DNA of 64,000 bases from Candidatus Altimarinota bacterium. GTDB lineage: Bacteria > Patescibacteriota > Gracilibacteria > 1-14-2-50-48-13. The position numbers were made by a program, and so were the translations under genes. Positions within the stretch are counted from its first letter, which is position 1, and every line of letters starts with the position of its first letter. This document shows, piece by piece, positions 21,427-34,708 of the stretch. The stretch spans positions 288,001-352,000 of the forward strand of contig JBKBWQ010000001.1 in NCBI GenBank assembly GCA_046314355.1, written 5' to 3'. The notes below the pieces were generated by a model. It ran no database searches, was not told where the DNA came from, and was given only the letters and a program-made list of their open reading frames with translations.

Positions 21427-22968
21427 ATGAAATACGCACTCCTTCTCACAAGTTTCTTCCTAGCTTTTTCTCTTCAGGCAAGCCCCATATTGGCTCAAGA
21501 TATCGCTCCTACAGTATCTACCATTGATCTGCAAAACAGCATATCGCCAATTATTACCGGGAAGTCAGAAATCGAGATTGGTAAGCGTCTCTATCTGGAT
21601 GCTGGAAGCTCCTCAGTACCACAGAATACACCACTACAGTATATATGGACGATTAATGATCAAAGTACACAGGAAGGTAAAGAGACCTTTTATACTTTTG
21701 ATACGCCAGGAGAATATACAATAAGTCTGACAATCAAGAGTGATACGGCATCGAAGACAGTTATGCGAAAAATATTTGTCTATAGAGAGATGGTCTCATT
21801 TCTATACAATGGTCCTCTTGCATCTTTTACGAGCAACATACAATCTGCTCAAGAACTAGCAAAAAATAATGGTATTTTTCTAAATCTCATTCAAGGAGAT
21901 GATGGTAGTCCTATCTTAACAGAAGATGCAGTCTACAGAGCACTTTCAGGAAAGCTTGATTCTGTTAAGAACTCACAAACGCTTATTGCAGGACCGTATC
22001 CTACAGATGTATTGCCAGCACTGAATAAGCTTGGATATGATCAGGATAGTGAAGGCACTCATGTGATAATACTTACAACAAATGAACCAATTTGGTTATT
22101 TAATAATGTTATTGCAAGGTTATCGCGTCTAGTAGATGCAAAAGAATTGATCCTTATTCAGCAGGACCCGTTTGCTGTACTGAACTTCTTTTTACAGAGT
22201 ACTGACATAGAGCATTTTAAACAAAAGTTGCCAGAAAAAGATTATGCAATTATCTCAAAAAATACTTCACCGGGAATGAGATGGGCCTTATTATCTCAGG
22301 GACTGAATAAGGCTATTGAAAATGGGATACCAGCATCAGTACTTTCATTTTTACTGATAGTTCCATTAATTCTTACATGGATTGCTTTTTTCAAACAGGT
22401 AATCGGTATTGAAACATTCGGTCTATTAAAAACACTTATCCTTGTACTTTCCTTCTATATTCTAGGAATTAAGTATGGGAGTTTCATACTACTCTACGTC
22501 ATTCTTATGGGAGTACTTATACGAATAGTACTTTCAAAATTCACGCTTTTTTATATACCAAAAGTAACACTAACACTTTCTTTTGCTACACTAGCCGTAC
22601 TTGGATTAATTATTATCGGCTCATACTTCAATCTTACATTCGGTATAGATACATCTAGCGGACAAAGAGCACTGCTCTCATTAGTACCTATGCTTTTGAT
22701 TGCTTTTCAGGCAGATACACTTTCGTATCATATCTTTACAAAGAATTCCAATTACAAAGAACTGCTGATTCTACTTGCTACATACTTTGAGGTGGTTATT
22801 GCCTTTGGAATAGCCAGGATAGATTATCTTAGATATATACTTTTTGCATTACCTGAACTTATTATTATCGTATTTATACTACAATTCCTTATCTCTCGCT
22901 ACACTGGATTAAGAGCGATAGAAGTATTCCGTTTCAGAGAACTTCTTTTACAAGATCTTGAAGAATAA
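21427..22968 (+). CDS. PKD domain + 7TM (7TM_transglut-type) membrane protein
   Basis: Signal peptide; PKD-like YIWTI..YTFDTPGEYTISLTI; C-terminal KQVIGIETFG...RYTGLRAIEVFRFRELL, typical of the 7TM domain paired with ATP-grasp ligases. Confidence 0.8.
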   Translation: MKYALLLTSFFLAFSLQASPILAQDIAPTVSTIDLQNSISPIITGKSEIEIGKRLYLDAGSSSVPQNTPLQYIWTINDQSTQEGKETFYTFDTPGEYTISLTIKSDTASKTVMRKIFVYREMVSFLYNGPLASFTSNIQSAQELAKNNGIFLNLIQGDDGSPILTEDAVYRALSGKLDSVKNSQTLIAGPYPTDVLPALNKLGYDQDSEGTHVIILTTNEPIWLFNNVIARLSRLVDAKELILIQQDPFAVLNFFLQSTDIEHFKQKLPEKDYAIISKNTSPGMRWALLSQGLNKAIENGIPASVLSFLLIVPLILTWIAFFKQVIGIETFGLLKTLILVLSFYILGIKYGSFILLYVILMGVLIRIVLSKFTLFYIPKVTLTLSFATLAVLGLIIIGSYFNLTFGIDTSSGQRALLSLVPMLLIAFQADTLSYHIFTKNSNYKELLILLATYFEVVIAFGIARIDYLRYILFALPELIIIVFILQFLISRYTGLRAIEVFRFRELLLQDLEE

Positions 22969-22971
22969 TCT

Positions 22972-25410
22972 ATGGCAAATTTTTCTGACATATTGGGTAT
23001 TAACGCTAGACATCTTCTTTTTATAAAAAAATATAATCCGGATGATGCTATTATATTTGCCGATAATAAACTTAAGACAAAGAGGTTTCTTGAAGCAAGA
23101 GGTGTCCCGGTACCAAAACTTGCAGGCACAATAAGGAATTTTACTGAGCTTGATAATTTTCCATTACCAACATTACCAGGACAAATAGTAATCAAGCCTA
23201 ATGCAAGTTCAGGAGGTCAGGGGATTATTGTACTTGGCGAAAAAAATTCTACAGGCTGGAAAAAAAGTAGCGGTGAAGATATTTCGCTGCAGGAGGTAAG
23301 AAGACATATTCATGATATCCTTTCTGGTGCGTATTCAAAAAATGGACAGAGCGATATCTGTCTTATTGAAAAGAGAATCATCAGTCATGAAAAGTTAGCG
23401 GCTATTTCCTATAAGGGACTTCCTGATATACGAATCATCGTATTCAATATGGTTCCTGTAATGGCTATGCTCCGTCTCCCTACAATTCTTTCCGACGGAA
23501 AGGCAAACATGCATCAGGGAGGTATTGGAGCAGGGATAGATATTGCGAAAGGAGAAATTACATACCTTTCACAATTTAATAAAATCATCGATGACATCCC
23601 AGGAATTGGTGATGTACGCGGATATAAGATTCCTTATTGGGATAAAATTCTCCAGATGGCGGTAAAAAGCCAGATGATTACCGGAGTGGGATACTTGGGT
23701 GTGGATATCGCACTTGATAGAAATGGACCTATGGTTCTTGAAATGAATGCGCGGGCAGGTCTAGGCATCCAGTTAGCTAATATGGCACCGCTTCGGAAAA
23801 GATTAAATATGGTTGAGAAACTTAAAGTAAAATCCATAGAAAAGGGAATCAGAATTGCAAAAGATCTTTTCGGAAGACAAATAGATCGTGATATTGAGCA
23901 GGTTTCAGGAAAAACAGTTATCGGAACGAGAGAAATAGTTACTCTTTATTTTAAGGAAGGACCAAAAGAAATACTTGGTAAAATTAACCCCTCAATCCAG
24001 GAAAATTATATTGATCGCCAGCTTTTTGAAGAGCTTATTGCAAAAAAACCCTATCTACAACAAGGTGATGACTCAATTCGGCTAAAATATAAACTCACTG
24101 ATGAGAAAACGAAAAGTATTTTTAAACCTTTAGATTTAGGAGATAAAAAGTATCAATTAATTTTGGGAAGAAAAGAACTTAAGAGCCTTTTGATAGACCC
24201 GTATAAATATAAGTTCAATGAGATTCCATATAAACCCGCATTAAATTTATTATTACCTGAAAAAACAGAGGAAGCTGAGCGTAACGCACTTATCAAAAAA
24301 TGGTTTGAAGTAGATCAGTCGCTTGCACGTATTGAAAGAAATTTACAGGTAAAATTTTCTCTTTTTCCACTCAATTATCAAACTGAGATGGAAAAATTCA
24401 TCGAATGTGAGGGACAATATAATCCATTTTTCATCTATAAAAATGACCCCGAAAGCTACGAACATATAAAAAATGATCTTGATGCAGTACATATTAATAC
24501 TCAGGAGTTTCAGGGACATATCTTTGCAGCAAAGAAGAACGAACTATTTACAAAACTTGAAATGTTTCACTGTATGGCAAAGGATGCTCATGAATTTACC
24601 AGATTATCTGAGGAACTCTATATCACATGTGATCCTGTTCTTTTTGAAGCGGCAGAAGCAGAAATTGTACGGAAAAAAGAAACTTTAGGATTTTTGATCC
24701 CGAAAGAGGAAACTTATGGATTAGAAGAAATTAAAAATGAGATTACTGCACTTTTTAAAAAATATAAACTTACTAAATGGAATATAAAAGTTCGTAATCA
24801 CGCTAGTTCACGTATAAGCGTAAGCAAATCAAAAAAACGCATTCTCTATCTAGCATCTGATATAGAAATAGAAAAACACCTCCTCCCACAAGTACTTGCA
24901 CATGAAGTAGAAACGCATGTACTACGTCTGGAAAATGCTCTTCAACAGCCATATGAGATATTTAGAACAGGTTTTGCAAACTATCTTGAAACAGAAGAAG
25001 GACTTGCTATCTATAACCAAGCATGCAAAAGCGACGTGGTATCACTAAAGGATTTCACGGCAGCAATCAATTATGTAAAAACATATAATATTCTGAATAA
25101 AAGTTTTGAAGAAGCTGCACATGGATATCTGCAGTCAAGAAATAAGGCGGAACTACTCAATTATGAAATGTATCAGAGTATATTTAAAAGTATTTTAAGA
25201 GTGAAGAGAGGACTTGGAGATACATCGCATCATGGTGGATATGCAAAAGATCTTGTATACTTTGCTGGATATAGAAAAATTGTGGACTTCGTTGAGTCAG
25301 GAGGAAATATAAAAAATTTGTATTTTGGAAAAATATCTCTACAATCTCTAGATGATGTTACCTTCATGCAGGAGCTCAAAGAACCGAAAATATTACCTGA
25401 TTTCTATTAA
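22972..25410 (+). CDS. Fusion: ATPgrasp_ST (alpha-L-glutamate ligase-like) + inactive RimK-associated aspartyl protease + DUF1704 metallopeptidase
   Basis: LGINAR, DNKLKTK, IKPNASSGGQGI, GLPDIRII, GKANMHQGG, LEMNARAGLGIQLAN; VIGTREIV..GKINPS..ILGRKEL..IDP; HEVETH..TEEGLA..RVKRG..KDLVYFAG. Confidence 0.85.
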   Translation: MANFSDILGINARHLLFIKKYNPDDAIIFADNKLKTKRFLEARGVPVPKLAGTIRNFTELDNFPLPTLPGQIVIKPNASSGGQGIIVLGEKNSTGWKKSSGEDISLQEVRRHIHDILSGAYSKNGQSDICLIEKRIISHEKLAAISYKGLPDIRIIVFNMVPVMAMLRLPTILSDGKANMHQGGIGAGIDIAKGEITYLSQFNKIIDDIPGIGDVRGYKIPYWDKILQMAVKSQMITGVGYLGVDIALDRNGPMVLEMNARAGLGIQLANMAPLRKRLNMVEKLKVKSIEKGIRIAKDLFGRQIDRDIEQVSGKTVIGTREIVTLYFKEGPKEILGKINPSIQENYIDRQLFEELIAKKPYLQQGDDSIRLKYKLTDEKTKSIFKPLDLGDKKYQLILGRKELKSLLIDPYKYKFNEIPYKPALNLLLPEKTEEAERNALIKKWFEVDQSLARIERNLQVKFSLFPLNYQTEMEKFIECEGQYNPFFIYKNDPESYEHIKNDLDAVHINTQEFQGHIFAAKKNELFTKLEMFHCMAKDAHEFTRLSEELYITCDPVLFEAAEAEIVRKKETLGFLIPKEETYGLEEIKNEITALFKKYKLTKWNIKVRNHASSRISVSKSKKRILYLASDIEIEKHLLPQVLAHEVETHVLRLENALQQPYEIFRTGFANYLETEEGLAIYNQACKSDVVSLKDFTAAINYVKTYNILNKSFEEAAHGYLQSRNKAELLNYEMYQSIFKSILRVKRGLGDTSHHGGYAKDLVYFAGYRKIVDFVESGGNIKNLYFGKISLQSLDDVTFMQELKEPKILPDFY

Positions 25411-25418
25411 CTATTCCT

Positions 25419-26081
25419 ATGATCATTTTCGATAATGTTACAAAAAAATTTGGGAGTAGAGCAATACTAGATTCTTTCAGTCTTCAGATCCAGGCCGCAG
25501 AGTTTGTTGCTATAATGGGACACTCTGGAGCAGGTAAATCTACAATGATCAATCTGCTGATAGGTCATCAGCGTCCCACAAGTGGTCAAATAATGATTGA
25601 CGGGGTACATATTGAAAACATGGATTTTAATATGCGACAGCTTTACCGCCGAAAGATTGGTATTGTCTTTCAGGATTATAAACTCTTACCAAAAAAGACA
25701 GTGTATGAGAATGTATCCTTTGCTATGGAAGTATGCGGAAATACTGATGAGGAAATACAAAAGAGAGTACCTGAAATACTCCACCAGGTTGGTCTTCTAG
25801 CAAGACAAGAACAGTATCCTGATGAACTCTCAGGTGGTGAACAGCAAAGATGTGCTATAGCTCGTGCATTAGTACATAATCCAAATCTTTTAATTGCAGA
25901 TGAGCCGACAGGAAATCTTGATCAGGAAACAGCAAAAGATATTATTAAGCTTTTGAGTGATATTAACAAAAACGGCACAACTATCATTATGACTACACAT
26001 AATCCAAAGCTTCTAGAGAACCTTACGTATAGACTTGTAGAACTGCATGAGGGGAAGCTGAAAGAATCAACGCATCATTAA
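25419..26081 (+). CDS. ftsE: Cell-division ABC ATPase
   Basis: GHSGAGKST, RRKIGIVFQDYKLLP, LSGGEQQR, ADEPTGNLD. Confidence 0.88.
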   Translation: MIIFDNVTKKFGSRAILDSFSLQIQAAEFVAIMGHSGAGKSTMINLLIGHQRPTSGQIMIDGVHIENMDFNMRQLYRRKIGIVFQDYKLLPKKTVYENVSFAMEVCGNTDEEIQKRVPEILHQVGLLARQEQYPDELSGGEQQRCAIARALVHNPNLLIADEPTGNLDQETAKDIIKLLSDINKNGTTIIMTTHNPKLLENLTYRLVELHEGKLKESTHH

Positions 26082-27412
26082 TACTCCGAAATACTATTTA
26101 TAAACTGTAGTACTTTCGTGTGATTTGGATTAGTATAATCGTATTTCCCAATAGTTAAGTCAGGGAAGGGAAAATGGTTATGATAGTATTCTTCGTAATA
26201 ACTCCATGTAGAGATATTGCCCAGAGTATAAATCATATCTTTAGTAAAACAAAACCCTTCGGAAAGCCCTGAAGTACCTCTAAAGGTTCTTGTGGTTCTT
26301 GTCCAGGCAAGATCTACTGCTGTTTGCTTTGCAGTTTCAAGAGCAACACCATGAAGTAGTTCAAAATAGAAATAGAAATCATAGGAAAAATTAAAAATCT
26401 CTCGAAAATTTCTTTTTTTTCCAACCATTCCTTTTGTAAAAGCGATTGAAAGGTATCTATCAATTCCAAATAATAGAGCACAGTCTTCATTAAAAACCTG
26501 TTCCCATACTGTAGTAGGTCCTTCAGATACTTTTTCAAAATTGGCGAATCCTTTACCTAAAAGCATTATTCTCGAATTCAGTCCTTTAATTGCCTGCTGA
26601 ACATGGTATCCAAGTTCATGAATAAGCAATTCCGAAAGCCGGTGAAAATCTACAGTTTTCGTAGTAGGAATCACTACCTCTTTAAGGTTATGGTCTACTG
26701 CAATACTATCAAGACTTTTCTCACGCAGTACGATTGAGTAGAGATTTTTTGTATCTATAAGAGATCTATACTCTTCAAATACGGCAGCAATCTCTTCTGC
26801 AGTGAATATATCTTTCTCCTTATATTTTTGAAGAATATTTAATGCATCCTGAAATTGTGTGTAACAATTATTTTTTGTCCAAAGCATACACTCTTGGGAC
26901 GGAAGGAAAGGATTTTGTTCTTTTCCGCTTTTTTCTAAATATTGTAATAATTTTTCAGAACCATGATTTGCCTCTTTCTTAGATATGAATTCATTTAAAT
27001 TGTCCATCAGGTGCATGGTAGTTTCTCTTTCAGGAGCTCCATAGAGCTTTTCCGACAAGATCTGTACTTTTTCTTCATTGCCTTCGGAGACGGCATTTAA
27101 AAAACTTATTATGATCTGTTGTTCTTCTATTTTATTACAATATATTTCTTTTATTATTGAATGATATGACGATTCTTCAATGGATTTGCTAAAATCTGTA
27201 AGTTTTAATGCTGTTTTTGATAAATGCTCTTTATCAATAAATGGGTAAAGAAAAGTAGGATTTTCAATCTTTCCAGCCAGAAACAGTTGTTTCTGATTTT
27301 TCCAGTAGTCTGCATCACTTTCTAAAAGTGACAGAATACGAATATCTGCAACTTCTTTTTGAAATCGCAGAAATAGTTCATGATCAAGAGCAGTGACATT
27401 TTTACTAGGCAT
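26078..27412 (-). CDS. DUF1704 (MATCAP-like) metallopeptidase, paralog B
   Basis: HELGYH, SEG, RTFRGT, FTKDMIY, GKYD. Confidence 0.8.
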   Translation of the reverse strand: MPSKNVTALDHELFLRFQKEVADIRILSLLESDADYWKNQKQLFLAGKIENPTFLYPFIDKEHLSKTALKLTDFSKSIEESSYHSIIKEIYCNKIEEQQIIISFLNAVSEGNEEKVQILSEKLYGAPERETTMHLMDNLNEFISKKEANHGSEKLLQYLEKSGKEQNPFLPSQECMLWTKNNCYTQFQDALNILQKYKEKDIFTAEEIAAVFEEYRSLIDTKNLYSIVLREKSLDSIAVDHNLKEVVIPTTKTVDFHRLSELLIHELGYHVQQAIKGLNSRIMLLGKGFANFEKVSEGPTTVWEQVFNEDCALLFGIDRYLSIAFTKGMVGKKRNFREIFNFSYDFYFYFELLHGVALETAKQTAVDLAWTRTTRTFRGTSGLSEGFCFTKDMIYTLGNISTWSYYEEYYHNHFPFPDLTIGKYDYTNPNHTKVLQFINSISEY

Positions 27413-27521: not shown

Positions 27522-28895
27522 TTATTCTTCTTCTTCACCGTCACAGTCTGCAAAAAAATCATATTTTGCTTTTGGTACAATATTTGTAATCTCATTTATT
27601 ACTTTCATATGATCCATGTTTGTTGGGTCATATTTACCTATAAATAGATTAGGTAAATCCTGACCTAATTCATACATTTTGGTCATATATTGCCATATAC
27701 GGATGTTTCCATCCCTATAGCAAATATCCTTTGTAAATGCATTACCTGCGGAACAGTCAGTTCCACGAAACGTACGTATACATCTGTTCCACGCATCATT
27801 ATTAGCTTTCTCTTCTGATTCAGAAAGTGATTTACCTTTCTTAGTTGCTTCATACTGATATAAAGTTTTCAGAATGTTAAACACCTGTCTAAAATCTCTT
27901 TCAACGCCATCTAATCCTAAAGCAGCGCCGATGGAAAGATAAGCTTCGGGACGACCGAAGTCTTTCACTTTTCCATCATAACTCTGTTCCCAGACAGTGG
28001 TGAGGCCTTCTTCACCTTGAAGATAACCACTTAATCCTAAACCAAGTAATTTAAGGTTAGAACCTTCACCATTTTCACGACGTTGGACATGAGTACCAAT
28101 CTCATGACCAATGAGTTTTTCTAATTTTTCCCCAGTTACCTCACGGCTAGCAGGAATATTAACTGTCTTTTTTTCCTGTGATACTGATATTGCAGTTTTA
28201 CTGCTTTCAGTAATCTCAATTTTAAACTCACCGCTAGCACCAACATTGTTAAGAGCTTTTTCAAAAAATTCCTTTATCTCAGGAGCGTTATACTTAGATT
28301 TAGAATCAATTATAATGCCATGAAACAAACTTTTAAACTGTTTCATGAATTGCTCTTTCGTCCAAGCCACAACTTCTTTAGATGGAAGGGAAATATTAAA
28401 TGCATGATTCCCTGCCTGTGGTAAAATCTCAAGCAGTTTTTTAGCTGCAATTCCGATATCTCCATCTACGGAGATATTTGCTTCTGCATCCTTTCTTATT
28501 TCAGATAAAGTGTAGAAGTAAATATCAGTATCCGGTATACCGTTTACATCTGCATTAAATGCTTCAAATAAATTCATATCTCCATCTAGTACGGCATCCA
28601 GCAAAGAAAGTTCATTGAGTTTTTCGATAATCTTTACTGTGTAAGCTTCTCTGTATACTTCAGGTAAATCTGAAGTATCAATTGCTTTCAGTGCATTAGC
28701 TTTAGATTCAATATTCTCTCGTGTAATTAATGGATAATCCAATCTAGGATTTTCAATTTTATAAGAGAGAAATAAAGCTTTCTGTTCATCTCTATAGGCC
28801 TTATCACCATCTAAAGATTCGTAAGCTTCAAATGAACCTGCCGAAGCAAAACTTGCATAAATAGCTAAATCAACAGCTGAATTATTTTGTACCAT
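27522..28895 (-). CDS. DUF1704 (MATCAP-like) metallopeptidase, paralog A
   Basis: HEIGTH, GEEGL, RTFRGT, FTKDICY, GKYDP; strong AGGAGGT SD. Confidence 0.85.
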   Translation of the reverse strand: MVQNNSAVDLAIYASFASAGSFEAYESLDGDKAYRDEQKALFLSYKIENPRLDYPLITRENIESKANALKAIDTSDLPEVYREAYTVKIIEKLNELSLLDAVLDGDMNLFEAFNADVNGIPDTDIYFYTLSEIRKDAEANISVDGDIGIAAKKLLEILPQAGNHAFNISLPSKEVVAWTKEQFMKQFKSLFHGIIIDSKSKYNAPEIKEFFEKALNNVGASGEFKIEITESSKTAISVSQEKKTVNIPASREVTGEKLEKLIGHEIGTHVQRRENGEGSNLKLLGLGLSGYLQGEEGLTTVWEQSYDGKVKDFGRPEAYLSIGAALGLDGVERDFRQVFNILKTLYQYEATKKGKSLSESEEKANNDAWNRCIRTFRGTDCSAGNAFTKDICYRDGNIRIWQYMTKMYELGQDLPNLFIGKYDPTNMDHMKVINEITNIVPKAKYDFFADCDGEEEE

Positions 28896-29021: not shown

Positions 29022-29288
29022 TTATTCAGCTTTTGCCTTAGTAGCTTTCTCAGCCTTTACTTCTTTAGTAATCTTAAACTCTTCCTTCATTTTTGCAGTA
29101 TTGAAACCATACTTCTGCATTCGAAGCTCAATCTTTGCTACTGCATTGCTAAGCCATTTAGTATGACCTTCTTTCTGGATTCTTTCTCCAAGTTTCTTAA
29201 GAATTTTTACACTAGCATCCATTTTAGAAGTATTGCTAGGACCTTTCTTATTTACCTTATAAATTTGGCGGGCTTTACCTGATTGCAC
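29022..29288 (-). CDS. Small basic protein with a K/E/A-rich tail (88 aa)
   Basis: Promoter TTGCGC-17bp-TATAGT (29366-29338) overlaps the tracked start, which favours GTG at 29288; terminator follows the stop. Confidence 0.65.
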   Translation of the reverse strand: MQSGKARQIYKVNKKGPSNTSKMDASVKILKKLGERIQKEGHTKWLSNAVAKIELRMQKYGFNTAKMKEEFKITKEVKAEKATKAKAE

Positions 29289-29426
29289 GGTGTCGTTCAG
29301 TGAAAATATAAAAATTCGTCGGAACAAATGTGAGGAAACTATACTAAAAGAAACAGCTAAGCGCAAGAGAATTTGAGTAGAATACTTATAATTATCTAAA
29401 GAAATGATAAGTATTAGTAAGGGAAT

Positions 29427-30455
29427 CTAGAAGTTGAATTTATTTTTAAGAATTACGTCAACGGTACTATCGTTTACGCTTTCAATAGGAGTCTGGATCC
29501 CTGGAGTGGCGTTTAATTCAATAATCTTAATTTCATTTATAGATTTACAGTTCTTTAAATCAGCATGAAGTACATCAATTCCGACAATCTCCAATCCCAT
29601 ACGTATTGCCAGATCTTCAAATACTTTAGCGATCTTAGGATCAATTTTATCTGTAATTATTTTTTCCGTTCCGCCTACAGAATTATTACATTTATAAGAA
29701 AGAAATATTTTTTTTCCTTTAGGCAAAATACTCTCGCGAGTAACTCCTTGCTCTGAGAGAAGAATATCTAACTCTTCGGTCAGAAGAACTTTATTATAAA
29801 ATTCAGTATACAAAACAGCCCCTCTATTTGGGTCATCATTGAGCGTTTCTATTAATTCATTGATGGTTTTCTTCCCATCACCTATAACATAAGGCTTAAT
29901 TCTATGGGTGACCCAGTGACATTTCCCAAACAGAATAAAGAATCTGTAGTCTTCTCCTTCAATAAATTCCTGAATAAGAAAATTTTTTTTATTTCTTGTA
30001 AAACTCACGGCATCTGCGATAAATAATCTTAATACCTCTAAGGTCTGTGTATTATTCCATACATGGACTCCGTTCCCGTGGGCACTATCTACGGGTTTGA
30101 TAACTATCGTCGTTGGTGATGCTGCAATAATCTGTTCGACTTCATCGAGTGAATCGATACTATAGATATTACTCTGAATTGTAGGGTATTTCCAATGATT
30201 AAGTACCTGATAGGTAAGTAACTTATCATTGCATATTTTACTCATTGAGGACGAATTATCCAAACTACATCCTTTAAATATAACTTCTTTTCCATCCTTA
30301 GAGAGAATATAAGTACTTTTTTTCTCGTCAATCATCTGAAGAGTATATCCTGTCGCCTGCGCTCTTTTAATAATAGTGGCTGGGCTGATCGTCAAATAGT
30401 TCATATTCATCTTGTATTCAAAATAATTAATTGAGTGAATCAAATCAAGATTCAT
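29427..30455 (-). CDS. Stand-alone ATP-grasp ligase, cyanophycin synthetase/GshAB-like
   Basis: CNDKLLT, VIKPVDSAHGNGV, QEFIEGEDYR, YVIGDGKKTINELI, NNSVGG, GIDVL, IIELNATPG; true start may be MNMNYL. Confidence 0.85.
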   Translation of the reverse strand: MNLDLIHSINYFEYKMNMNYLTISPATIIKRAQATGYTLQMIDEKKSTYILSKDGKEVIFKGCSLDNSSSMSKICNDKLLTYQVLNHWKYPTIQSNIYSIDSLDEVEQIIAASPTTIVIKPVDSAHGNGVHVWNNTQTLEVLRLFIADAVSFTRNKKNFLIQEFIEGEDYRFFILFGKCHWVTHRIKPYVIGDGKKTINELIETLNDDPNRGAVLYTEFYNKVLLTEELDILLSEQGVTRESILPKGKKIFLSYKCNNSVGGTEKIITDKIDPKIAKVFEDLAIRMGLEIVGIDVLHADLKNCKSINEIKIIELNATPGIQTPIESVNDSTVDVILKNKFNF

Positions 30456-32617: not shown

Positions 32618-33514
32618 ATGTTTTCTAATATGAAAAAATACTTTCTCCTGCCTGCGATCTGCATATGTTTTCTATTTATTCTCTCCTACCTGCAGACTTA
32701 TAGAATCAAAGCTCAAGAGACGTCATCTCCAGCATTAACTGTATATTTTTTCTCTATTGGACAGGGGGATAGTTCTCTTATTCATACTCCAGAGAATAAA
32801 TGGATACTTGTGGATGGCGGACCAGATTCTGAAAGTGCAGTATCTGCAATGCATCCAATACTTCCATTCTTTGCAGGAAAAATAGACTTAATGGTACTAT
32901 CTCATCCTCATAAGGATCATATTGCAGGACTTATAAAAGTGCTTGATACCTATGCGGTGGGAAGTATCCTTATGTACGGTGTCTCAGAAAATGATCTGCA
33001 AGAGCAATTTATTGCAAAGAGTATGGAAAAAGGAATCCCAATAATCAGTGCGGATCCTTTGATTGATTTACAAATTGATGCTGTAACGTATGTTGATGTA
33101 TTAAGTCCATTAGAAAATGCTGATTCAGAAGAAAAAAATATTAATAATTTGTCAGTGATGTTTATGCTCAAGAGCGGTGCACATACTTTCCTCTATACTG
33201 GTGATGCTGAAGAAGAACAGGAACGTCAGCTCTTACTATCACAGTCATACCTTGATGCAGATATTCTTAAGGGAGGTCATCATGGAAGTAAGACAAGCAG
33301 TAGTATTCCTTTTTTAGATGCAGTCTCCCCCGACTTAGTAGTATATATGAATGGTCTTGATAACTCCTTTGGTCATCCTGATACTCAAACGCTTGAACAT
33401 TTAGATGAAAAACATATACCTTACTTTAATACTTCGCTTAATGGCACTATAGTAGTAACTTGTCCTTTGAAGGAGCAAAAGTGTACTAGTACATCTGAAC
33501 GCTCACTTCATTGA
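32618..33514 (+). CDS. ComEC/Rec2-type metallo-beta-lactamase-fold protein
   Basis: IGQGDS, LVDGG, SHPHKDHIAG, TGDAE, GHHGSKTSS, FGHP. Confidence 0.9.
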   Translation: MFSNMKKYFLLPAICICFLFILSYLQTYRIKAQETSSPALTVYFFSIGQGDSSLIHTPENKWILVDGGPDSESAVSAMHPILPFFAGKIDLMVLSHPHKDHIAGLIKVLDTYAVGSILMYGVSENDLQEQFIAKSMEKGIPIISADPLIDLQIDAVTYVDVLSPLENADSEEKNINNLSVMFMLKSGAHTFLYTGDAEEEQERQLLLSQSYLDADILKGGHHGSKTSSSIPFLDAVSPDLVVYMNGLDNSFGHPDTQTLEHLDEKHIPYFNTSLNGTIVVTCPLKEQKCTSTSERSLH

Positions 33515-33562
33515 GTAAAATTCTATCCATCCAATATATCTGTATACTCTACGGAGATGTAG

Positions 33563-33645
<83 letters not shown>

Positions 33646-33661
33646 GTTAAGCCACTTGCAC

Positions 33662-33689
33662 TTGCTATCACTCCTTGCATAGATAGAAT
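33662..33689 (+). promoter_or_regulatory. Putative xer promoter
   Basis: TTGCTA-16bp-TAGAAT. Confidence 0.55.
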
Positions 33690-33715
33690 GAAACCAACAG
33701 CATTTCATACATTTG

Positions 33716-34708
33716 ATGATCTCTCTTGCAGAACACATTCAGGATTTTCTCGTTGATATCATTATAGAGAAGAATCAGTCAAAAAAAACAAAGCTTAATT
33801 ATGAGCATTATCTTAAACGTTTCTTGAATTTTATAGGGCAAGATGCAACACCAGACAAGATCACCTTACCTAGAGTAAAAGCATACAGACTATTTCTGAC
33901 AGAAGTCACTGATAAAAATGGAGTACTGCTTTCTCCAAAAACGCAGAGTTATCACATAATTGCTCTGCGAGCGATACTTAAATACTTAAGAAAAAATGAT
34001 GTCGAAACACTTGCTCCTGAAAAAATAGAAGTAGCAAAATCTGAAAGCAGACATGTGGAATATCTGACAAGAGAAGAGCTCGACAGATTATTTCAAGCGG
34101 TAGAGGATATATTTGTAAAAAATGAAAATGTCATTCTGTTAAATCCTAAAATAAAGAACAAGGAAGAGCGTATTGCTGAACTAACATTAAGAAAATTAAG
34201 AGATAGAGCTATCCTTGAAACATTATATTCTACAGGACTTCGAGTCAGTGAACTTGTAAGTCTTAACCGCCTAGAAGTAGACCTCGTAAGAAAAGAGTTT
34301 GCAGTAACTGGTAAAGGTAGAAAACGCCGCATTGTCTTTCTGTCTCAAACTGCGGCAGAGAAAATACAAGACTATCTTCAGAAAAGAGGAGATAATCTCA
34401 AACCTCTTTTTCTCAATTATGCCAGGAGTATGAAAAAGCAAGGAGATATATTAGCAGATGAAGAGCGAAGACTAACGACAGTATCCATAGAAAATATTGT
34501 ACGCACCTATAGTGCACATGCAGGTATTATTAAAAGAGTAACACCGCATGTACTTCGTCATTCCTTTGCTACAGAACTGCTCTATAATGGCGCTGATATA
34601 CGATCAGTGCAGGAAATGCTGGGACATGCGAGCATTACGACTACTCAGATTTATACAAATATTACAAATAAACATTTGCGTGAAGTACATGAAAAATTTC
34701 ATAAATAA
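33716..34708 (+). CDS. XerC/XerD-family tyrosine recombinase
   Basis: RDRAILETLYSTGLRVSEL, GKGRKRR, TPHVLRHSFAT, LGHASITTTQIY. Confidence 0.93.
   Translation: MISLAEHIQDFLVDIIIEKNQSKKTKLNYEHYLKRFLNFIGQDATPDKITLPRVKAYRLFLTEVTDKNGVLLSPKTQSYHIIALRAILKYLRKNDVETLAPEKIEVAKSESRHVEYLTREELDRLFQAVEDIFVKNENVILLNPKIKNKEERIAELTLRKLRDRAILETLYSTGLRVSELVSLNRLEVDLVRKEFAVTGKGRKRRIVFLSQTAAEKIQDYLQKRGDNLKPLFLNYARSMKKQGDILADEERRLTTVSIENIVRTYSAHAGIIKRVTPHVLRHSFATELLYNGADIRSVQEMLGHASITTTQIYTNITNKHLREVHEKFHK

Follow-up and report, generated by a model that had tools for sequence, protein, structure and literature searches.

An RloC-type ligase, a degenerate retropepsin domain and a MATCAP-type metallopeptidase joined in one protein of a Gracilibacteria genome

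In the Rim system, the ligase RimK extends the C-terminus of RpsF with glutamates, which RimB trims (PMC7343187, PMC11957791); RimB also alters the ATPase rate of RimK by direct interaction, a role apart from cleavage (PMC11957791, PMC10092738). In the rlo system of Pseudomonas, RloA cleaves stretches of 8-10 Glu, and protease mutants recover from hypo-osmotic stress when rloB or rloC is lost (PMC12239564). Human TMCP1/2 and Tetrahymena TMCP shorten glutamate chains (PMC10499314), and the primary C-terminus of tubulin is extended by TTLL11 (PMC12366701). The present text concerns a gene in the window, that is, the whole stretch of 64,000 nucleotides (nt) analysed here, from Candidatus Altimarinota bacterium (GenBank assembly GCA_046314355.1, contig JBKBWQ010000001.1, positions 288,001 to 352,000, forward strand). 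This gene encodes an ATP-grasp ligase, a degenerate retropepsin-like domain and a metallopeptidase of the MATCAP/TMCP family (DUF1704) in a single protein of 812 amino acids (aa). Its features, in window positions, are as follows.

22972-25410 (+): three-domain protein, 812 aa, the main finding (open reading frame (ORF), homologues, AlphaFold model, fold matches)
23014-23820 (+): RloC-type ATP-grasp ligase domain, residues 15-283 (PF14397, E 2.6e-67; TIGR02291, 275.8 bits)
23905-24210 (+): degenerate retropepsin (RimB/RloA-like) domain, residues 312-413 (fold match to 9g59, Z 12.1)
23980-23997 (+): KINPSI, residues 337-342, in place of KIDTGA (alignment with two-domain relatives)
24289-25407 (+): MATCAP/TMCP (DUF1704) metallocarboxypeptidase domain, residues ~440-812 (PF08014, E 1.9e-24; Z 22.9 to 7z5g)
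24901-24918 (+): HEVETH, residues 644-649 (HExxxH motif)
24991-25008 (+): TEEGLA, residues 674-679, with the third metal ligand E676 (distal Glu of the EG motif)

The gene is a single frame without internal stop, and its ATG lies 3 nt past the stop, at 22968, of a gene for a seven-transmembrane (7TM) protein. Pfam finds ATPgrasp_ST (PF14397) at residues 15-283 with 227 bits (cut-off 31.4) and MATCAP (PF08014) at 474-807 with 86.8 bits (cut-off 27), and no retropepsin match in the segment between them. The middle domain was likewise undetected by PDB sequence searches with the three-domain protein as query, and no retropepsin is among the matches listed by Foldseek for the whole model; it is detectable by structure comparison and via two-domain relatives only. 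Specifically, in an AlphaFold model built from 121 homologues (mean predicted local distance difference test, pLDDT, 89.2; predicted template modelling score, pTM, 0.54), residues 312-413 match RloA2 (9g59) with Z 12.1 and a root-mean-square deviation (rmsd) of 2.4 over 98 aligned residues, and residues 313-421 match 2pma (Z 11.6, rmsd 2.6, 101 aligned), both comparisons being made within the whole 812-aa model rather than with the domain folded alone. As PF14397 and PF08014 occur together in all of the best 120 full-length homologues, the fusion is not a product of chance; an assembly chimera or readthrough, also considered as its origin, is ruled out by the same 120 proteins.

An original prediction, made from the sequence, had proposed this anatomy of ligase, degenerate protease and metallopeptidase, which the Pfam and fold matches confirm. 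It had also placed the 7TM partner gene 3 nt upstream, as the ORF coordinates agree, and had named the retropepsin fold of the middle region as a point to check, which is borne out in the model by the match to 9g59. Its reading of KINPSI for KIDTGA holds column for column in the alignment with two-domain relatives.

These relatives were collected by a search with residues 1-415, the best 120 matches of which comprise 100 complete ligase-protease proteins and 20 that were set aside as fragments of the three-domain type (12 carry a remnant of MATCAP, 8 were assigned by the tree). In addition, a genome scan confirmed 559 loci, of which the best 80 were kept and underlie the locus counts given here (L marks a locus number): 69 are of the three-domain type ('triples' below) and 11 of the two-domain type. 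The motif D[TS]GA is present in 100/100 two-domain proteins and in 0/121 triples, and the loci agree (11/11 versus 0/63, six of the 69 triple-type loci having no readable HExxxH, five because they are cut by contig ends and L050 because it is apparently frameshifted). The catalytic position holds D in 62 of the 121 triples and N in 53, the window protein reading Asn (NPSI); D[TS]G is found in 24. The flap is deleted as well, with 52-62 residues from the motif to the IG against 69-109 in the two-domain form, and of two arginines found in every two-domain protein, one survives in 1/121 triples and the other in 0/121. In alignments they fall on the RP and DR arginines of solved RloA structures, and their spacing of 23 residues is that of R114 and R137; cleavage of polyglutamate by RloA requires D48, R114 and R137 (PMC12239564), and the activity of RimB is abolished even by an Asp-to-Glu change at the catalytic position (PMC11957791). 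Among the 24 triples that retain D[TS]G, none keeps the flap or the second arginine.

The domain itself is present in all 121 aligned triples and has near-invariant residues of its own, namely E321 (121/121), K/R370 (119/121), K/R372 (121/121), R/K379 (121/121) and R401 (117/121). Its mean consensus over the triples is 0.54, with 0.56 for MATCAP and 0.74 for the ligase. Because its conservation equals that of MATCAP and it carries these special residues, it looks repurposed rather than lost. The sequences thus suggest a former protease retained as a pseudoenzyme, with the endopeptidase swapped for an unrelated metallo-exopeptidase within one polypeptide. The original prediction had supposed just such an inactivation and replacement by DUF1704, to be checked by whether loss of DTG goes with gain of DUF1704. 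The correlation is found, in the proteins and in the loci; replacement is favoured by this parallel and held back by the small number of events behind it, two at most, and by the 24 triples with D[TS]G.

In the MATCAP domain, H644, E645, H649 and E676 are invariant in 121/121 triples, and the modelled domain matches human MATCAP (7z5g) with rmsd 3.1 over 282 aligned residues. The QEGLA profile TIGR02421 gives 100.7 bits, below its cut-off of 338.65. The metallopeptidase motif had been called intact, which HEVETH and TEEGLA support, and of the HExxH type, which is to be corrected to HExxxH, the metal motif described for TMCP1 (PMC10499314). The metal-binding residues make an active peptidase plausible, as far as motifs can tell.

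The ligase residues K33, K75, E133, D152, R154, N179, D245, E257 and N259 are intact, invariant or conserved in 120/121 among triples, and the catalytic residues are identical in two- and three-domain forms; R154 and N259 correspond in alignments to RimK R189 and N262. TIGR02291 (alpha-L-glutamate ligase-like) stays below its cut-off of 314.2, as does the RimK profile TIGR00768 (43.6 bits, cut-off 143.4), and close structural matches of the three-domain model include ArgX, LysX and RimK (Z 18.4, 16.9 and 16.7). The N-terminal (pre-ATP-grasp) domain of RimK, about its first 85 residues, is absent, profile position 24 aligning with RimK residue 87. In RimK this region carries several polyglutamate contacts (S7, R8, S14, R64 and S68; PMC10092738), and the partner may provide the acceptor-side surface that the ligase has lost relative to RimK.

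The membrane partner is encoded directly upstream:

21427-22968 (+): partner membrane protein, 513 aa, RloB-like (PF14402, 60.2 bits; PKD_4, 45.6 bits; model pLDDT 89.6)
22897-22965 (+): conserved C-terminal tail of the partner, residues 491-513 (-EE counts; 491-509 in the modelled interface)
22960-22965 (+): Glu-Glu codons at the end of the partner, which ends -QDLEE

It consists of an N-terminal hydrophobic helix, a PKD domain (43-111), an alpha/beta domain (~121-280) and 7TM_transglut (305-506). Pfam detects no transglutaminase domain, the PKD domain standing there instead, and the RloB profile NF052267 gives 38.2 bits, far below 900. The alpha/beta domain (window 21787-22266) is modelled confidently and has no Pfam or clear structural match; fold searches with the partner, in which the middle and 7TM domains were not searched alone, gave PKD/Ig matches only, and the 7TM domain gave no solved structural relative. 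Of the 80 loci, 70 carry a 7TM gene; among the other ten, upstream DNA is missing in three and 1.2 kb long in one, and the remaining six show no such gene over 10 kb. In Atlas clusters corresponding to window 22273-22965, 7TM_transglut is fused to ATPgrasp_ST (63% of one cluster) or to an aspartic protease domain (82% of another), and these fusions argue for a physical link among the three families.

A C-terminal -EE is present in the partners of 49/56 triple loci (a final E in 52/56), in those of 0/11 two-domain loci and in 8/661 background ORFs, the partners of L050, L052 and L080 not being called as clean ORFs. The distance of this end from a conserved Phe is nearly fixed, at 9-11 residues in 52/56 triple partners. 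Since GAA and GAG could also act as part of a Shine-Dalgarno signal before a coupled start, this origin was considered and ruled out: the -EE is kept in 13/13 loci with at least 25 nt before the next start, two of them with an inserted gene, its codons vary, and it is absent from two-domain loci with tight coupling. A tree of 217 7TM domains, from which the tail was left out (11 of 228 sequences lacking the tail motif were dropped, one of which ends in -EE), places unlabelled representatives on both sides, and all 56 on the triple side have a terminal E (EE in 46).

The ligase protein (residues 1-415) was modelled in complex with the partner (residues 283-513), giving a score of 0.61 against 0.00 for the best of three controls; the mark used is reached by 116/157 solved pairs and 2/215 mismatched pairs. 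At least 78% of contacts agree between runs, and the partner pLDDT is at least 77. In the ligase, the contacts fall on residues 3-16 (the conserved N-terminus), 181, 203-205 and 264-273; in the partner, they fall on 491-509 as well as on 324 and 444. The model supports binding of the partner's tail by the ligase, and, since the searches brought up no solved structure related to the 7TM domain, memory of a similar complex is unlikely, though possible.

Triple-type loci are mostly labelled Peregrinibacteria, Peribacteria or Gracilibacteria, or are unclassified, and the named organisms among the best 120 homologues are Gracilibacteria, Peregrinibacteria or Patescibacteria. The closest among the best 80 of 559 loci is L001 (47%, Ca. 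Gracilibacteria), which shares with the window the order M17 peptidase-like, dnaB-like, 7TM, triple and ftsE-like gene (names by sequence reading). In a FastTree phylogeny of ligase domains, 141 triple-type and 100 two-domain sequences split on one branch; in an IQ-TREE phylogeny that includes the loci (L053 and L065 left out), the label needs two changes, L063 being a triple on the two-domain side. Fusion and motif loss were therefore probably one evolutionary event, and at most two. The triple of L063 (6954-10770) has a DTG and a DR motif, a short flap and a partner without -EE, and its ligase and partner are of the two-domain type, with a yebC-ruvC-like upstream context (by reading) as in several two-domain loci; it could represent an intermediate or else a second fusion.

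The reading towards which we lean, with some reserve, is that of a membrane-docked module that writes and erases glutamates, a variant of the Rlo and Rim systems in which the endopeptidase eraser has been replaced by a C-terminal exopeptidase. It is suggested by the relatives, because RloA and RimB cleave polyglutamate, TMCPs shorten glutamate chains and RimB modulates RimK. Specifically, the ligase would bind the C-terminal tail of its 7TM partner, as in the model, and would spend ATP on adding alpha-linked glutamates to a C-terminal carboxylate, as its kinship with RimK and RloC and its intact catalytic residues indicate. In the two-domain form, the fused RimB/RloA-type aspartic endopeptidase would then cut the polyglutamate, to judge from its conserved motif and arginines. 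In the triple lineage this domain has lost motif, flap and substrate arginines and has kept its fold, with new conserved basic residues, and may serve as a non-catalytic module for oligomerisation, binding or modulation of the ligase. The fused MATCAP domain would replace it as eraser, taking glutamates off the C-terminus one by one. The weakest step concerns the acceptor: the encoded -EE of the partner would be the likeliest primer or acceptor, a role that we hold doubtful, and it may otherwise be a product mimic that tunes the enzyme. That one and the same protein lengthens and trims a glutamate chain on its own partner's -EE tail, and so forms a transmembrane switch read as tail length, is a tentative extension and somewhat unlikely; the PKD-bearing part of the partner probably faces outward. 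The original prediction, which is partly supported overall, had suggested switching by the 7TM partner, an idea now backed as far as a binding model and no further; it had not named the chemistry of adding and removing glutamate, nor noticed the -EE tail.

Several points weigh against the write-and-erase reading. The glutamate specificity is taken over by analogy from relatives, since assays of RloC or of a bacterial MATCAP were not found in the literature searched, and TMCP1 is mainly a detyrosinase (PMC10499314). In the complex model, partner residues 510-513, the EE included, lie outside the confident contacts. For six triples, the 10 kb upstream contain no 7TM gene. Seven of the 56 triple partners lack -EE, and four of them (L022, L042, L049 and L063) have no terminal E at all, with the peptidase motif intact. 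On the two-domain side of the 7TM tree, 16/83 unlabelled representatives have a terminal E and 11 have -EE; therefore, -EE is not exclusive to the triple lineage. D[TS]G is kept by 24/121 triples, and one homologue (P0139) has the degenerate domain without a MATCAP match and sits among triples; it may be a counter-example or truncated. Finally, because the split lies on one branch, with two events at most, the correlations of DTG with MATCAP and of -EE with the triples are phylogenetically dependent and do not count as replicated evidence.

Two sets of loci deserve separate mention here. The triples of L022 (5176-5943), L042 (9150-9980) and L049 (9210-9980) belong to one clade with short partners of 255-276 aa at these positions, in which -EE is also lost, and could be used as a natural control pair; the short partner of L022, the one scanned, has no PKD match. 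In L015 (12606-13532), L026 (12171-13364) and L051 (12413-13324), a RimK-like gene lies directly downstream of triples without a nearby 7TM gene, identified by Pfam RimK and RimK_N in L015 and L051 and by clustering in L026.

The main rival, which we regard as unlikely, shares the chemistry and differs in the substrate: ligase and 7TM protein would make free poly-alpha-glutamate, as an osmotic buffer, a store or an exported polymer, and MATCAP would recycle it, with the 7TM protein acting like CapC of poly-gamma-glutamate synthase and the -EE being a docking feature that is never modified. The 7TM domain does resemble CapC-family models (TM score 0.52 by query and 0.59 by target, 165 aligned), a borderline likeness between two predicted models, and the partner has no CapC match in Pfam. 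Free poly-alpha-glutamate is produced by RimK and RimB (PMC11957791); the secreted RloA cuts polyglutamate, no encoded substrate was found for it, and the rescue by loss of rloB or rloC is seen under hypo-osmotic stress (PMC12239564). In Photobacterium at low salinity, a QEGLA/MATCAP gene is up 27-fold, the range being 27- to 52-fold when its gshB neighbour and rimK are included (PMC10308900), and two-domain systems manage without -EE. However, a free polymer leaves unexplained why the MATCAP-fused lineage has -EE at a nearly fixed distance from the Phe, and a cytoplasmic eraser fits export poorly.

It is improbable that ligase and peptidase work on a substrate unrelated to glutamate chains, such as a different amino acid, a small metabolite or a peptide of the cell wall, with Rim/Rlo ancestry no longer a guide to the chemistry. 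The scores below the cut-offs of TIGR02291 and RimK would allow this, as would the close structural matches to ArgX and LysX beside RimK and the names of tyrosine/phenylalanine carboxypeptidase given to the peptidase in some databases. Cell-division genes also occur nearby: ftsE follows the triple gene directly in the window (25419-26081) and in L001 (12450-13118), without an adjacent ftsX, the window ftsE scoring above the TIGR02673 cut-off, and an ftsX-like gene (by reading) directly precedes the triple in L066 (9063-9956). On the other side, the same catalytic residues occur in the two- and three-domain forms, the two-domain protease has the polyglutamate-binding arginines, and the partner's tail ends in Glu. 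Equally improbable is that the middle domain is a decaying spacer relic, or still weakly active in some members, with MATCAP added rather than substituted: it is less conserved than the ligase, D stands at the catalytic position in about half of the triples (62/121, with D[TS]G in 24) and L063 has DTG and DR beside MATCAP, but its conservation equals that of MATCAP, it is present in every aligned triple with lineage-specific invariant residues, and the window protein has Asn where RimB does not tolerate even Glu (PMC11957791).

Further members of these families lie downstream of the three-domain gene as accessory neighbours:

26078-27412 (-): free-standing MATCAP gene 1, 444 aa (PF08014, 59.7 bits)
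27522-28895 (-): free-standing MATCAP gene 2, 457 aa, C-terminus of four glutamates (PF08014, 86.3 bits)
29427-30455 (-): second ATP-grasp ligase, 342 aa, like one ATP-grasp module of cyanophycin synthetase/GshAB (TIGR02068, 175 bits, cut-off 850)

The two free MATCAPs and the cyanophycin-synthetase-like ATP-grasp lie within 5 kb downstream of the triple and are not seen in the matching stretch of L001. They resemble the set of L068, in which a two-domain gene is followed by a free MATCAP, a RimK-like gene and two such ligases; the second ligase is 29% identical to the ATP-grasp beside the two-domain gene there. Duplication of the fused domain was considered as a source of the free MATCAP genes and is ruled out, as they group with the free MATCAP of L068 (support 97/95, from a rough bootstrap with a long-branch warning). 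The four glutamates at the end of free MATCAP 2 (27522-27536, -) could make its product a substrate or self-inhibited. Elsewhere in bacteria, MATCAP has an N-formylglutamate amidohydrolase upstream in two of three annotated loci viewed, one of which also has an annotated glutathione synthase downstream; it is fused to PF05013 in an Atlas cluster and adjoins RimK-like ligases in L068. Extra ATP-grasp genes are nearby in 8/11 two-domain and 4/69 triple-type loci.

Among other observations in the window, a small basic protein of no family (29022-29366, -) is 42% identical over 71 aa to one at the matching place in L001 (13545-13934), in opposite orientation, and an ORF at 33511-33756 translates into a repeated four-residue unit, which points to a short tandem DNA repeat between ComEC-like and Xer-like genes. 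No phage match was found, the guanine-cytosine (GC) profile shows no island, and a promoter scan was uninformative (60 sites against 50.3 +/- 7.3 expected).

The combination of ligase and MATCAP is already visible in automatic annotation (JGI names and a 205-member Atlas cluster), where the degenerate domain is unannotated. In the literature searched, in which subscription journals are largely missing, we found no account of the fusion, the biochemistry of bacterial MATCAP proteins or the -EE tail, and no biochemical function for the RloB/RloC pair. Bacterial MATCAP/DUF1704 and RloB/RloC are widespread, and the natural fusion ties both together and points to the partner's -EE tail as a candidate substrate. 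If a glutamate chain is indeed extended and trimmed on this tail by the fusion protein, it would be the first identified substrate for bacterial MATCAP and RloC-type ligases, and a bacterial counterpart of the tubulin-tail glutamylation cycle with the same eraser family; if MATCAP acts as a deglutamylase in this protein, trimming of glutamate could plausibly be an older role of the family, which in eukaryotes works on tubulin. The retention of the three-domain protein across genome-reduced Patescibacteria suggests that it is important to them.

Compared with known systems, the protein would work like Rim and Rlo yet lacks the RimB/RloA catalytic motif, and the curated cut-offs for RimK, RloB and RloC are not reached. 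It shares with rloABC of Pseudomonas (RloA retropepsin, RloB 7TM protein, RloC ATP-grasp; PMC12239564) the same three families and a PF14402 gene directly upstream of a PF14397 ligase; L084 carries the three genes intact, its RloB-type protein ending in -KARS. Here, in contrast, the degenerate protease domain is fused to the ligase, lacks a signal peptide and has MATCAP behind it, and the partner ends in -EE and has PKD in place of the transglutaminase domain. RimK/RimB and the RimBK hybrid (PMC7343187, PMC11957791) likewise oppose an ATP-grasp glutamate ligase to a peptidase, with a fused form known and RimB modulating the ligase, but the protease is N-terminal and active in RimBK and C-terminal to the ligase and degenerate here, the present ligase is of the RloC type without the RimK N-terminal domain, and the predicted eraser is a metallo-exopeptidase. 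MATCAP1/TMCP1 and TMCP2 (PMC10499314; PDB 7z5g) have the common fold (Z 22.9), the HExxxH and EG metal site and the KRG motif, whereas the present domain is bacterial, ligase-fused and ~20-22% identical. With CapBC/PgsBC, the membrane subunit may share its fold, as the TM scores of 0.52 and 0.59 between predicted models hint, while the ligase here is an ATP-grasp enzyme. CapB is a Mur/FolC-type ligase. The two-domain ATPgrasp_ST and PF05618 proteins of other Patescibacteria share the ligase, the position of the fused retropepsin and the upstream 7TM gene (11/11), and differ in having D[TS]GA, the flap and both arginines, no MATCAP, and a partner without -EE.

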